A stretch of DNA of 64,000 nucleotides from a phage, in assembly GCA_012813795.1 (NCBI GenBank), contig GCA_012813795.1_4087.1; one strand, 5' to 3'. This document shows, in pieces, positions 3,600 through 56,387 of the stretch; the stretch's first letter is position 1, and each line of letters begins with the position of its first letter. A program made the position numbers and the translations under genes. The notes below the pieces were generated by a model that was not told the DNA's origin, searched no databases, and was given only the letters and a program-made list of their open reading frames with translations.

Positions 3600-4100
3600 T
3601 TACGACACAGCGTTTTCGTAATATTCTATTGCTTCCGAGATATTTTGAATTGCCTGTGCCTTTAATGATTTGTTATAGCGACCAGTAAATGAACCTAAAT
3701 TCTTAATGAGATCAAGAAATAATGGAAGTACTTCAGATGTATCAGTAAAATCACACTGATATAAAGTTCCCATCTGGAACAATTCACCGCCGTCTACGCA
3801 CAACGTGTTAAAGTCTTTTTGTACTCCCTTTTCTTCATTGAAAATGAAATACGAAGTCCCCATGTGGTGAAGATAAACACCATGTTCATCCTGAACGTGG
3901 CAGGGGGTAATACACATCGCCGTATTGTCAATATTATTTACTATCGTCAAACGGAGGCTATGTAATCCGAAAACTACAGTACTATTGAGTGTACTGCATT
4001 GTAAATGGTCATTGGTGATAGTAACTTTACTTGTCCTTTTGTCATCGAATGAACGTGTAATCAAAGAAATGCAAAGTTTCATATCAGTTGTTAGTTTCAT
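3600..4100 (-). CDS. FamA paralog
   Basis: 166 aa; motif GGELFQMGTLYQ. Confidence 0.65.
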   Translation of the reverse strand: MKLTTDMKLCISLITRSFDDKRTSKVTITNDHLQCSTLNSTVVFGLHSLRLTIVNNIDNTAMCITPCHVQDEHGVYLHHMGTSYFIFNEEKGVQKDFNTLCVDGGELFQMGTLYQCDFTDTSEVLPLFLDLIKNLGSFTGRYNKSLKAQAIQNISEAIEYYENAVS

Positions 4101-4542
4101 CCAAAATACCCTTAATATGTTTGATTAAATTGACTAGTACTGATTTATCAAATGGATTATTTAGACCAATACACTCGTACTGGAATAAGTCACCATCAAG
4201 AATAACATCTAAATCAATATCTAACTTCTTATTGTTGGTATCAAACATAGTAACATTATCAGAAGAAACTGTCAACACTTTTTGTGAATTTTTAATCTTA
4301 TTACTGATATAAACATCAATAAGTAATTTACTGTTCACTGTAACCGTTTCAAAGATGATTTGACTAGTACCGTAAATGTATTTTACTGAATTATGTATTC
4401 GTGAATATTTTAATTTGTATAAATTAATACCATTGTACTTACATTTGGTATCAATTTTTAATTTGCATGATAAGATAGCATTAACTAATTCATTTATATT
4501 AGTTAATCTTGTTTTGGCTATCGATAAAGTTGGTAAATTCAT
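4084..4542 (-). CDS. FamA paralog
   Basis: 152 aa; motif DGDLFQYECIGL; start uncertain (44-nt overlap with upstream gene). Confidence 0.6.
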   Translation of the reverse strand: MNLPTLSIAKTRLTNINELVNAILSCKLKIDTKCKYNGINLYKLKYSRIHNSVKYIYGTSQIIFETVTVNSKLLIDVYISNKIKNSQKVLTVSSDNVTMFDTNNKKLDIDLDVILDGDLFQYECIGLNNPFDKSVLVNLIKHIKGILDETNN

Positions 4543-51984: not shown

Positions 51985-52075
51985 TTTAGTATTCCTTAAA
52001 TTAATATGCGTTGTCTTGATAAAATCTATTATGCCAGTACTATCAAACTATGTCAATAGTACTGTGATAATATTT

Positions 52076-52288
52076 TTACTTACTTTCTTTAGCTGCTTTA
52101 TGTGCTTCCACTGCCATAACCACATCAGCACGAACAAAGTTAGCAACCGTATCAGTGTAATATTTGATTGCATCGTCAACTTCTGCGAACGTCCGATACA
52201 TACCACACCAAGATACTTTATAACCTGCTTTCACTTGTTCCAGCTTAACCAGTGATTTGTTTACTTTGATTTTAGTAATGATAGCCAT
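52076..52288 (-). CDS. hypothetical protein
   Basis: 70-aa minus ORF. Confidence 0.55.
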   Translation of the reverse strand: MAIITKIKVNKSLVKLEQVKAGYKVSWCGMYRTFAEVDDAIKYYTDTVANFVRADVVMAVEAHKAAKESK

Positions 52289-52370
52289 TTTTTGTTTCCT
52301 CTTAGTTGTCTTGATAAAATCTATTATGCCAGTACTATCAAACTATGTCAATAGTACTGTGATAATATTT

Positions 52371-52514
52371 TTACTTACTTTTTGCTTTCTTTGATGCTTC
52401 AACCTGGTCAGCCCACTCTTTACCCCATACTTGAGCATTATAGTGATACTGACAAAGAGCAACGCCCCGCTTTAAACCAGTAATAGATTTTTTACCACAT
52501 TGACAAGTTTTCAT
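52371..52514 (-). CDS. small Cys-containing protein (47 aa), not in ORF track
   Basis: Hand-translated MKTCQCGKKSITGLKRGVALCQYHYNAQVWGKEWADQVEASKKAKSK; GAGGAA SD; promoter module upstream. Confidence 0.45.
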   Translation of the reverse strand: MKTCQCGKKSITGLKRGVALCQYHYNAQVWGKEWADQVEASKKAKSK

Positions 52515-52898: not shown

Positions 52899-53051
52899 TT
52901 AAAGTTTATCAATGATTGATGCCGTTTCATTGATAGTCTTGCCGTGTTTTGCACACGCGATAACTGCTTTAAATTCCTTTGATGACCAATCTTTTTTCCT
53001 GCATACTGACATTACTTGTAAAGTGAAACAATCCAGTTCATAAGTATTCAT
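52899..53051 (-). CDS. small protein (50 aa), not in ORF track
   Basis: Hand-translated MNTYELDCFTLQVMSVCRKKDWSSKEFKAVIACAKHGKTINETASIIDKL; GAGGA SD; promoter TTGCAC-N16-TATAAT. Confidence 0.45.
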   Translation of the reverse strand: MNTYELDCFTLQVMSVCRKKDWSSKEFKAVIACAKHGKTINETASIIDKL

Positions 53052-53220
53052 CTTTATATCCTCAGTTAGTTAAGGTGTCTCGCCTTGATGTAATTAATTA
53101 TACGCTAATCTCTTAATCGTGCAAGTACTTTTTATTAGTTTTTATAAAATACTTTTAACGCTCTCAATCGCATTCTAACGGCCTTAACGCCACCAGCTAG
53201 GGCGATGTATCACATAAACG

Positions 53221-53254
53221 AAAAAAGCCCGTAGAATTGATTCTACGAGCTTTT
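53221..53254. terminator. bidirectional rho-independent terminator
   Basis: GCCCGTAGA..TCTACGAGC hairpin flanked by A6 and T4; 3' of the lipoprotein gene. Confidence 0.55.
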
Positions 53255-53270
53255 AAGCTGGTTGATTGTA

Positions 53271-53678
53271 TTACTTACAGTTATAGACTATGATCCCGAC
53301 CGTCCCGTGTCCAATGACTTCAACGTTATACACTAACTTGCCATTTACACGCTCGCGAGCATAAAAAACGCGTTCATTCTCGGCATCGCGATACGCTGAT
53401 AAAAATTTACGGTTTGGATACGCTTTCAGTACTGGCGACTCAGTGAAAAAGTCACCGATAACTACACTAAAATGATCCCCGTGTTCTGTTAATGGTATAC
53501 TACGCGGATCAGTAAATTGCGGACGGTTATCAATAACAAAATATGGATTCACTGTACAAATCTTATCGCCCATCTCTGAATAAGTTGGCTTAGGATCATT
53601 AGCCTGGATGGATGATTTAGGGGCCGTACATCCCACCGCCAACAGTACACAACTAATAACCGCAATTTTTTTAAACAT
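53271..53678 (-). CDS. lipoprotein (candidate superinfection-exclusion or receptor-blocking factor)
   Basis: 135 aa; signal peptide MFKKIAVISCVLLAVG|C with lipobox LLAVGC. Confidence 0.65.
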   Translation of the reverse strand: MFKKIAVISCVLLAVGCTAPKSSIQANDPKPTYSEMGDKICTVNPYFVIDNRPQFTDPRSIPLTEHGDHFSVVIGDFFTESPVLKAYPNRKFLSAYRDAENERVFYARERVNGKLVYNVEVIGHGTVGIIVYNCK

Positions 53679-53742
53679 AATGTTTACTCCTATAAAATTG
53701 TATTTAAAAGAAAATCCCCTAGCAATCAGGGGATTCGTTTGA

Positions 53743-54225
53743 TTATGCTACATCTTTACGGTGAGCTTCGATCCATTCCTCGCGAGTCATACCGCTGGCG
53801 TTAATCGCGTCCAGTACTACGGCAATGCAGTTACCGCGTACTGGTACAGTGTATTCCTCGCCATTATCCAGTACTACCGTGACACGTTCTTGAATCCATT
53901 TTTTAGCTTTTACTTCTGGCTTGTCTTCCCCGTATTTCGCTGCCAGGGCTTTACGGGCCATTTCGGTAACTACTTCCAGATCAAGCCCAGCGACGGCGGC
54001 GTTAATATCTTCAATCGTTTTCTGCAATTCTGCTTCGCGTGCTGCCTTCTCTGCTTCAATTGCCGCCGCTTTATTAGCTTGCAGTTCTTTCGCTTCGCTG
54101 TACGCAATGTTAAAATTGTTGCGTACTGCTTTCATGGTATCGCTATCCAGTTCAGCCAGGATCTCTGCCGCTACATTAGTTTCATTTGCTACCAGTGCTT
54201 TGATGAATGATTTTACGTTAGCCAT
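53743..54225 (-). CDS. hypothetical Ala/Glu-rich coiled-coil protein
   Basis: Track ORF begins at a TTG; ATG at 54225 (MANVKSFIKAL...) has GAGGAA SD; central AAAIEAEKAAREAELQK heptad-like region. Confidence 0.6.
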   Translation of the reverse strand: MANVKSFIKALVANETNVAAEILAELDSDTMKAVRNNFNIAYSEAKELQANKAAAIEAEKAAREAELQKTIEDINAAVAGLDLEVVTEMARKALAAKYGEDKPEVKAKKWIQERVTVVLDNGEEYTVPVRGNCIAVVLDAINASGMTREEWIEAHRKDVA

Positions 54226-54424
54226 TATGTAATTCCTCAATTAAAGTTTAGTTTACGTTAGATAGTGTATCAAAGTTTTCTCGACGTGTCCAGTTTTTCG
54301 TTCGACTTACTGGCGGTCTACTTAGTGCTCCCCGTCTTGATGTAATACATTCTACGCCTTTTTGTGGTAATGTCAACTACTTTTTTAAAACTATTTTCAA
54401 AGTATTCCAGTACTACGATACTAC

Positions 54425-54458: not shown

Positions 54459-54689
54459 TTAATCAGTAAGTAAAATATTAAACACTTTGCCATTTAACGT
54501 TATTGGTGTACTGCTACCAGGCTTGAGATCAGTTAGTACACCTGCAATAGCTTTTTCATTGGCGACCTTTCCAGTGTCCAATAGTACTACAGTACTGATA
54601 AGATTAACGCTCGTTTCAATATCATAATGCACGGCGTTAAGGAGTTGTGTAGTACTTCCAGCGTTAAGTAAAACTATTCGCTTAGTCAT
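54459..54689 (-). CDS. hypothetical protein
   Basis: 76-aa minus ORF. Confidence 0.55.
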   Translation of the reverse strand: MTKRIVLLNAGSTTQLLNAVHYDIETSVNLISTVVLLDTGKVANEKAIAGVLTDLKPGSSTPITLNGKVFNILLTD

Positions 54690-54767
54690 GGTATTACCCC
54701 TTATACCAGGGGAACCGTTCCCCCTATGTAAAACATTATACGCGTTTAAAAACTATTGTATAGTACT

Positions 54768-55004
54768 TTATGATTTTTTATAAAACATTTCAGCAGTGAT
54801 ATTTTTACCCGTTGGTTGTACTTTATCCAGAATTTTTTGATGTCCAGGGCGACCAAATGAATAAGATCCGTAAACCGTAAACCAGTAGTTACCCTCAGTG
54901 TTTACATGTACAGCACAATAGGGAACGCCCCGCGATTCATCACTAGTAAAGTGTGCTACCGTTCCCGTTACATTCGAAGACGTTGATTTGATTTGTTCGA
55001 CCAT
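54768..55004 (-). CDS. hypothetical protein (paralog of 56154..56387)
   Basis: 78 aa; shares GVPYCAVHVNT.G.YW.TVYG.YSF.RP.H.KIL with 56154..56387. Confidence 0.6.
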   Translation of the reverse strand: MVEQIKSTSSNVTGTVAHFTSDESRGVPYCAVHVNTEGNYWFTVYGSYSFGRPGHQKILDKVQPTGKNITAEMFYKKS

Positions 55005-56153: not shown

Positions 56154-56387
56154 TTAGTGCTTAGTAAAATATTTTTCTGCGGTGATATCCTTTCCGGTAG
56201 GCTTCACTACTTCCAGGATCTTACTATGTGCCGGACGAGCAAACGAATACCCCCCGTATACAGTTAACCAATAGTCACCGTCAGTGTTTACGTGTACAGC
56301 ACAATAGGGTACACCTTTATCAGTATCAGCGATGGAATGTACTTTCGTTCCGGTCCGGCTTGTAGTCGTTTGAATTTGTTCGATCAT
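56154..56387 (-). CDS. hypothetical protein (paralog of 54768..55004)
   Basis: 77-aa minus ORF. Confidence 0.6.
   Translation of the reverse strand: MIEQIQTTTSRTGTKVHSIADTDKGVPYCAVHVNTDGDYWLTVYGGYSFARPAHSKILEVVKPTGKDITAEKYFTKH

Follow-up and report, generated by a model that had tools for sequence, protein, structure and literature searches.

Exclusion of further phage by means of lipoproteins has precedents (PMC12685063; PMC9586334). Llp of phage T5 (PDB identifiers 8A60 and 7QJF) is made early and consists of a tether and a small, beta-rich, disulfide-containing domain facing the periplasm; from that side Llp blocks FhuA, the receptor of the phage itself (PMC12685063; PMC9586334). Cor, of the phi80/N15/T1 type, and the LptD-binding Rtp45 are likewise small lipoproteins, encoded by small siphophages, which act on an outer-membrane protein from its periplasmic face and whose sequences vary with receptor specificity (PMC12685063; PMC11990801). 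In the literature examined, the exclusion lipoproteins that have been structurally characterised, viz., T5 Llp and Rtp45, come from siphophages, are small and are encoded beside receptor-binding-protein genes (PMC12685063; PMC11990801). T4 Spackle (PDB identifier 6X6O) is a phage protein that is exported to the periplasm and excludes superinfecting phage, but it is not a lipoprotein. Here we describe a lipoprotein-type gene at positions 53271-53678 (minus strand) of a 64,000-nucleotide stretch of phage DNA (NCBI GenBank assembly GCA_012813795.1, contig GCA_012813795.1_4087.1), which is referred to below, at its full length, as the window. The flanks in the window match 38 records of Asteriusvirus-group jumbo coliphages and Salmonella phages at 82-94% identity, including A4, 121Q, PBECO4, phAPEC6, G17 and fEgEco12, and judging by these matches the window is that of an Asteriusvirus, a 121Q/PBECO4-like jumbo coliphage.

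The protein shares with T5 Llp that it is phage-encoded, directed by prediction to the outer membrane and derived from a lytic coliphage. Homology to Llp was rejected, as hhalign of the lipoprotein against Llp (8A60_B) returned a probability of 0.1%. Sequence searches of the PDB with the profiles of the lipoprotein and of the gp204-like proteins discussed below gave no meaningful match, and the Cor profile (PHROG 1119) aligned only with residues 1-22 of one homologue (P0003; E 0.4), i.e., at the level of the signal peptide, with no match to the window protein. The relationship that could be established lies within the phage group: comparisons at the sequence level strongly support that the lipoprotein and its homologues form a clade, with a predicted lipid anchor, in a family of secreted proteins private to Asteriusvirus-like phages. 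This tiny lipoprotein clade and its unexpected family relationship are new, and the result is solid and modestly surprising.

The lipoprotein gene and its cassette

The gene, its ribosome-binding site and the landmarks of its product are the following.

53271..53678, minus strand: coding sequence of the lipoprotein gene, 135-aa prolipoprotein, ATG start, stop codon included (from the list of open reading frames; the identical protein P0001 is on record)
53687..53691, minus strand: ribosome-binding site AGGAG, 8 nt 5' of the ATG, kept in the homologous contig L005
53631..53678, minus strand: signal peptide, residues 1-16, with the n-region MFKK, the core IAVISCVLLAV and the lipobox L-A-V-G (PS51257-type rule; lipobox kept in the homologues P0002 and P0003)
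53628..53630, minus strand: codon TGT of Cys17, predicted lipidation site and mature residue 1 (G-C-T invariant in 3/3 locus homologues)
53556..53558, minus strand: codon of Cys41, first of two superfamily-invariant cysteines (from alignments; placed in the first beta-strand by the structural model)
53277..53279, minus strand: codon of Cys134, second invariant cysteine, directly after the last strand (from alignments)

The translation of this open reading frame (ORF; 135 aa) reads MFKKIAVISCVLLAVGCTAP / MFKKIAVISCVLLAVGCTAPKSS at the N-terminus, where it carries the lipobox MFKKIAVISCVLLAVG|C, and it is 100% identical to P0001, an entry for the same protein in a large protein collection. The PROSITE PS51257-type lipoprotein rule is satisfied by two lysines (K3 and K4), an uncharged hydrophobic core of 11 residues, L-A-V-G and a cysteine at position 17 (permitted range 15-35), and the mature protein comprises 118 aa after the signal peptide. 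A scan of all six frames of the window (1169 start-to-stop candidates, minimum length 40 aa) found six that satisfy the rule, and the five besides the lipoprotein are short antisense or alternative-start ORFs. The lipobox motif alone is therefore weak evidence, and it is conservation that decides.

For conservation, two homologues are available. A word-indexed search of 5.8 billion proteins returned the protein itself only, and HMMER, run exhaustively on 1.84 billion cluster representatives, returned exactly two relatives, P0002 (57% identity) and P0003 (38% identity); homologues number two in ~15 billion proteins. Both are encoded on short Asteriusvirus-like contigs (L005, from SRR23924980, and L006, from ERZ27259879, respectively) at the same slot, after a 160-aa gene and before a conserved intergenic region. 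The lipobox is kept in both (LAVG|C in P0002 and ILSG|C in P0003) while the rest of the signal peptide has diverged, and Thr18, the residue at +2 after the lipobox cysteine, is the same in all three locus proteins and is not Asp. In E. coli, residues other than Asp at +2 direct lipoproteins to the outer membrane, and the Thr in the prolipoprotein thus predicts outer-membrane sorting. An earlier note on this DNA, made from the letters alone, had proposed a lipoprotein with a classic lipobox. The lipoprotein signal holds under the rule, with the cysteine and Thr +2 kept in both homologues, and the lipobox is real, but 'classic' slightly overstates it: Ala at -3 and Val at -2 are off the strict L-[AS]-[GA]-C consensus, and the textbook L-S-G-C is found in the L006 homologue, P0003.

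The alleles of the locus, at 38-57% identity to one another, show a dN/dS of 0.29-0.44 in all three pairwise comparisons (dS 1.25-2.1, dN 0.36-0.83), which indicates that the gene is maintained by purifying selection. We conclude that the ORF at 53271-53678 is a genuine lipoprotein-type gene, with lipidation predicted at Cys17. The GC content of the gene (41.7%) and its GC3 (37.5%) are both inside the range of the neighbouring genes; a host or plasmid origin was rejected on this native composition and on the lack of matches in complete genomes of E. coli (DNA) or in plasmids (protein).

The gene is rare, and it sits in a segment of its own between two hairpins.

53246..53742, no strand assigned: segment without BLAST match in related phages, containing terminator A, leader and lipoprotein gene (from BLAST break points and alignments)
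53743..54225, minus strand: upstream 160-aa gene (PHROG 27871, function unknown), from which read-through transcripts might come
53712..53736, minus strand: upstream terminator hairpin ('terminator A'), which ends the 160-aa gene and is followed by TTTTCTTTT (-13.6 kcal/mol, z = -3.9)
53223..53254, minus strand: downstream intrinsic terminator (hairpin C with T-run), a 14-pair hairpin followed by TTTTTTCGTTT (-17.8 kcal/mol, z = -5.5)

It is absent from all 38 related phage records, tblastn of the prolipoprotein against 50,697 phage records found no match at E <= 1, and a profile of the three sequences found no further loci in IMG/VR, GTDB genomes and JGI metagenomes. BLAST homology to the relatives stops at ~53246 and restarts at 53743, and A4, which is ~94% identical to this phage around the site, has in place of the cassette 81 bp that include another terminator ('terminator B'). 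Three haplotypes can be distinguished: the empty one consists of terminator B and a T-less hairpin C; that of L005 of terminator A, the gene, terminator B and hairpin C; and that of the window and L006 of terminator A, the gene and a hairpin C whose T-run makes it act as the terminator. The three haplotypes are compatible with either gain or loss of the cassette. Terminator A belongs to the cassette and differs from the relatives' terminator at that position; L005 and L006 carry equivalent hairpins with different stem sequences. The downstream terminator is near-identical in L006, while the relatives and L005 carry a decayed, T-less form of that hairpin. These comparisons strongly support the gene as an accessory cassette, made up of terminator, ribosome-binding site, ORF and terminator, that follows the conserved 160-aa gene.

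The cassette has diverged far more than its surroundings. Between the window and L005, the lipoprotein genes differ with a dS of 1.25 and a dN of 0.36, compared with a dS of 0.31-0.45 and a dN of 0.03-0.11 for three flanking genes; as both values are far above those of the flanks, the alleles are much older than the surrounding backbone. Old alleles on young flanks point to allele exchange or to long-term diversification at the slot, and such locally raised divergence is as expected of a specificity or exclusion locus.

Kinship with the gp204-like family and predicted fold

A permissive tblastn search with the mature domain gave a weak match (E 0.5) at a different locus of Asteriusvirus SHEFM2K, and hhalign of the lipoprotein profile against the SHEFM2K protein M2K_0291 returned a probability of 96% and an E-value of 3.4e-9 over 126 columns. 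M2K_0291 belongs, with M2K_0293 of the same phage, 121Q gp204 and fEgEco12 g558, to a family that we refer to as gp204-like, whose genes lie outside the window.

L010:4001-4420: 121Q gp204
L011:4001-4414: fEgEco12 g558
L008:2714-3133 and 3902-4315: the two copies of SHEFM2K

The gp204-like proteins are 135-139 aa long; 33 phage records contain them, and they fall into several allelic groups with identities down to 39%. They share with the lipoprotein 24-32% sequence identity, the same length, both cysteines, fast divergence and the same phage group, along with the motifs PTxxEMGxxxC, LxExGxxF, RxRxxGxLxYxxE and a C-terminal NC. In an alignment of seven sequences, 16 mature positions are invariant (P31, E35, G37, C41, Y46, L63, E65, G67, F70, R108, R110, G113, L115, Y117, E120 and C134), and a Cys41-Cys134 disulfide is probable in the lipoprotein. 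The superfamily as a whole is confined to Asteriusvirus-like sequences in the search of 5.8 billion proteins.

The two branches differ in their signal peptides, distribution and genomic setting. The paralogues have ordinary signal peptides of the Ala-X-Ala type (...ASA|N, ...VYA|A), with no lipobox and no Cys at that position; being of the signal peptidase I type, these predict soluble periplasmic proteins, and almost every member of the genus (33 records) has gp204-like genes, unlike the lipoprotein gene. The gp204-like genes are located ~30 kb away, downstream of the virion structural gene gp201, whereas the lipoprotein gene lies in the terminal-repeat promoter array described below, and the lipoprotein clade has a four-residue SPVL insertion that the gp204-like proteins lack.

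The surroundings of gp204 are themselves variable. Its neighbours are gp202, a secreted protein of 83 aa, and the Cys/Lys-rich gp203, and no other part of that neighbourhood is as divergent as the gp202-204 trio (44-69% identity versus 73-97% for the flanking genes). The authors of fEgEco12 labelled gp202 (fEgEco12 Gp556) a 'lytic conversion lipoprotein' at an HHpred E-value of 0.18 (PMC13070987); we observe that Gp556 (L011:3322-3573) has no lipobox. The same label is used five times in the supplement of that work, including for Gp229, Gp252 and Gp556, based on HHpred matches to T5 Llp (8A60_B) with E-values of 0.002-0.18 (PMC13070987). These labels, which call for checking, hint at several small envelope-directed proteins in Asteriusviruses.

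Structure prediction depended on the alignment supplied. AlphaFold2 on the prolipoprotein as a single sequence reached a pLDDT of only 42.6, and an AlphaFold model from the alignment of the three locus proteins reached a pLDDT of 76 and a pTM of 0.68. In the latter, the signal peptide and tether (residues 1-26) lack order, and nine strands, for the most part with pLDDT >80, make up residues ~30-135. The model thus reasonably supports a fold of the up-and-down (meander) beta-barrel type, with 8-9 strands in ~100 residues, on a lipid tether of ~15-20 disordered residues. Foldseek searches with the model against viral models gave matches with E-values of 2e-5 to 5e-4 and TM scores of 0.5-0.57, and the targets, which include proteins of the large-genome phages SEGD1, Kwan, Huxley, PNJ1809-36, DIBBI and Possum, are uncharacterised or annotated as 'lipoproteins' of other phages. 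Against the PDB, Foldseek found nothing below an E-value of 1e-3 with the same query. As modelled, the fold class points to no functional family.

Expression context and candidate roles

The surroundings of the gene correspond to the terminal repeat of related phages. In vB_Ec-M-J, the site orthologous to the lipoprotein slot falls within an annotated direct terminal repeat of 21.5 kb, and in fEgEco12 it lies ~6-7 kb from the left end, within a repeat of 20,993 bp, which its authors confirmed via restriction digests. By homology, the stretch of the window at ~38.5-60 kb is the counterpart of the ~21 kb direct terminal repeat of the relatives. The same region holds an array of promoters. A near-consensus sigma-70 promoter of the form TACTTGCAx-16-TATAAT occurs in 17 copies between 40372 and 57871, all on the minus strand and none on the plus strand; outside these limits the window has a single, weaker copy. 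The array promoters each precede a small gene, several with an A-rich element on the upstream side and a leader that contains a GC hairpin; many of the array's small genes carry such a promoter and some end in a terminator. The array coincides with the region homologous to the terminal repeat. RpoD-like promoters of the related phage CBB, which bear UP elements, stand before short ORFs and reach into the terminal repeat, were read as early (PMC5259590). It is a reasonable inference that the region around the lipoprotein gene is likewise early and transcribed by the host RNA polymerase.

The promoter-like sites that bear on the lipoprotein gene and its neighbours are as follows.

53697..53725, minus strand: weak sigma-70-like site TTGCTA-17-TACAAT, overlapping the loop of terminator A (9/12 matches)
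54349..54376, minus strand: promoter-like site TTGACA-16-TAGAAT upstream of the 160-aa gene (11/12 matches)
53097..53127, minus strand: array-type promoter TACTTGCAC-16-TATAAT, belonging to the 50-aa ORF that follows downstream, a type absent from the lipoprotein gene

The sole promoter-like site of the lipoprotein gene itself is the putative TTGCTA-17-TACAAT. Its -10-like element (TACAAT/TACTAT) and an A/T-rich context are kept at all three loci, unlike the hairpin stems. The gene is likely transcribed from this weak site or by read-through from the site at 54376-54349, with modest expression. The earlier note had placed the gene in an early region and given it a bidirectional terminator of its own. 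An early-type region is supported by the 17-copy sigma-70 array around the gene; early expression of the gene itself is inferential, as it has no array promoter and stands behind a terminator. The downstream hairpin (53223-53254) is real and a good terminator on the minus strand, whereas its plus-strand version, at -14.2 kcal/mol, is weaker, is followed by TTTT only and was not called by the terminator scan. Since, moreover, every ORF of the window that was taken as a gene is on the minus strand, 'bidirectional' is unsupported as a functional statement. The second hairpin, at 53712-53736 directly upstream of the lipoprotein gene, had been overlooked.

We tentatively favour, as the best explanation of the above, an early-made outer-membrane barrel lipoprotein that serves in superinfection exclusion or in the protection of progeny. 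The gene would be transcribed by the host RNA polymerase soon after DNA entry, through read-through of terminator A or from the weak overlapping promoter. The barrel would face the periplasm and bind to a part of the envelope, most likely an outer-membrane protein on its periplasmic side or else a different element of a phage entry route, and the infected cell and its debris might then refuse further phage. Such a function would be analogous to that of T5 Llp, Cor and Rtp45, on an unrelated fold. An exclusion role is favoured because phage lipoproteins offer precedents, the context is of the early type, the alleles are deeply diverged and the gene is polymorphic for presence and absence.

Several points weigh against this proposal. 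Nearly all members of the genus live without the gene, so it cannot be central to the way in which they infect. Scans of the three lipoproteins against Pfam, PHROG, NCBIfam and PADLOC gave only noise at the level of the signal peptide; the structural model is built on three sequences, and its fold matches are generic. The mature lipoprotein, a barrel of 118 aa, is twice the size of Llp and Rtp45 (~6 kDa), and the genes of the Llp/Rtp45 type adjoin those of receptor-binding proteins (PMC11990801; PMC12685063), which the lipoprotein gene, by the family scans of its four neighbours, does not visibly do. It also has no TACTTGCAx-type array promoter and is directly behind terminator A, and its presumed position inside a terminal repeat follows from the termini of relatives rather than from the phage's own. 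The sequence A-V-G|C is compatible with cleavage by signal peptidase I as well, and we did not find the receptor or receptors of Asteriusvirus stated in the literature examined.

Two other functions can be imagined for a periplasmic barrel of this size, and we consider each of them unlikely. The barrel might inhibit a peptidoglycan hydrolase, for instance the lysozyme in the tail of a superinfecting phage, or else a lysozyme or amidase of the host or a competitor, in the manner of MliC/PliC or Spackle. In the size of its predicted barrel and the placing of its cysteines the lipoprotein resembles MliC (PDB identifiers of MliC/PliC barrels: 2F09, 3F6Z, 3OE3 and 7DPY): MliC is also a lipoprotein, of ~90 mature residues, whose first strand and C-terminus each hold a cysteine, alignment from end to end pairs both cysteines, and Foldseek matched the model to a protein of RB49 named LprI-like lysozyme inhibitor (E 4e-3). 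Yet Pfam MliC (PF09864) matches no member of the family at E <= 10, while it scores E. coli MliC at 6.7e-18, and the signature lysozyme-binding loops of MliC (SxSGAxY and YxxxTKG) are absent at the aligned positions. Homology to MliC was rejected, since the first hhalign match (84%) is an artefact of similarity limited to the signal peptide and falls to 0.3-1.6% when signal peptides are left out. A barrel of the lipocalin/YceI or Bor type that binds a small hydrophobic molecule or stabilises the envelope, with no part in exclusion, is about as improbable. Accessory genes of the ligand-binding or fitness kind are common in phages, and the fold matches include lipocalins, fatty-acid-binding proteins, YceI, nitrobindin and lipid-binding lipoproteins of Bacteroides; all of these are weak, however, no ligand-binding motif was identified, and the deep allelic divergence and the fast-evolving cluster of paralogues fit antagonism between proteins better.

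The protein might also be secreted but not lipidated. Were signal peptidase I to cut at A-V-G|C, for which Ala at -3 and Gly at -1 would suffice, a soluble periplasmic protein would result, as with the paralogues, all of which are ordinary secreted proteins, and the departure of the window lipobox from the strict consensus would be explained. We hold this to be quite improbable, because the +1 cysteine after [GA] is kept in 3/3 locus proteins amid changes at nearby residues, the lipobox of one of them is of the textbook form, and no paralogue has a cysteine at that position. That the ORF is a chance one, or a decaying remnant without function, might be suggested by its absence from almost all relatives, its lack of a promoter of the local type and its place behind a terminator, but three intact alleles with the dN/dS given above effectively refute this, and the lipobox kept in all three, the two cysteines and 16 invariant mature positions, the strong ribosome-binding site and the confident model make it very improbable. 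A lysis component, i.e., an o-spanin or Rz1-like outer-membrane lipoprotein, is at least as remote: its sole support is that o-spanins, too, are outer-membrane lipoproteins of phages. The predicted product is a folded barrel and not a short proline-rich peptide, and 121Q and PBECO4, which lack the gene, have two-component spanins of their own (PMC6139136). A spanin identity was rejected on genomic context, as there is no adjacent or overlapping i-spanin, the flanking genes lack the i-spanin design of an N-terminal transmembrane segment plus a periplasmic coiled coil and persist in relatives without the lipoprotein, and the gene belongs to a promoter array of small genes and not to a lysis cassette.

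The exclusion proposal can be taken further, to a reading that is possible but, in our estimate, doubtful. The superfamily might be a private, fast-evolving family of periplasmic barrels acting on the host envelope, of which the present gene would be a variant that gained a lipobox and moved to the terminal repeat. It would then found a new structural class of exclusion or envelope-remodelling proteins, unrelated to Llp, Cor, Rtp45, Imm and Spackle, with allele-specific targets that would shape the competition between jumbo phages in co-infection. Were that so, each virion genome would carry the gene twice, owing to its location in the terminal repeat, and the gene would be among the first to be expressed if that end of the DNA is the first to enter. 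Exclusion of phages by a barrel lipoprotein would extend the principle known from siphophages to jumbo myoviruses, where both the fold and the genomic logic would differ, and would provide a functional handle on the uncharacterised gp204-like secreted family of 33 Asteriusvirus-like genomes. The presence/absence polymorphism (A4 versus this phage) and the three divergent alleles offer natural isogenic comparisons. An exclusion factor would affect the design of phage-therapy cocktails with Asteriusvirus; if it is not one, the gene is one more orphan accessory gene.

Neighbouring genes and repeats

The four ORFs that adjoin the lipoprotein gene have no Pfam match and fall only in PHROGs of unknown function, with no virion or fibre family among them. 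The 160-aa protein encoded upstream is without a transmembrane segment at its N-terminus, and all the relatives in which the lipoprotein is missing have it. For its gene, the list of ORFs gives a TTG start at 54240 (165 aa), whereas the relatives use an ATG five codons further on, with the ribosome-binding site GAGGAA; the protein has a weak, sub-threshold Pfam match to Tox-PL-2 (E 1.3e-3). The 50-aa ORF downstream of the lipoprotein gene (52899-53051) is found in A4, fEgEco12 and 121Q and is absent from L005; in vB_Ec-M-J it is unannotated, and matches begin at ~53087. The neighbourhood of the cassette is thus a patchwork of small optional genes.

A further optional gene, of 99 aa, is missing from the window at 54689-54768, while A4 (A4_273), fEgEco12 (g10), vB_Ec-M-J and L005 have it between the 76-aa and the 78-aa genes. 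In fEgEco12 it is labelled 'protein spackle', which is unsupported (HHpred E 3.9; PHROG E 0.22 over the signal peptide only), and the gene is unrelated to the lipoprotein. The idea that the lipoprotein gene replaces it was rejected, as L005 has both.

Repeats and paralogy were also observed among the small genes of the array. A direct repeat of 77 bp, comprising promoter and leader, is present at 52010-52086 and 52305-52381, upstream of two adjacent small genes, and direct repeats of this kind probably explain why short-read assemblies break into contigs of ~3 kb here (L005 and L007). The small genes at 54768-55004 (78 aa) and 56154-56387 (77 aa) are paralogues that share the motif GVPYCAVHVNT(E/D)G(N/D)YW, and each has an array-type promoter.

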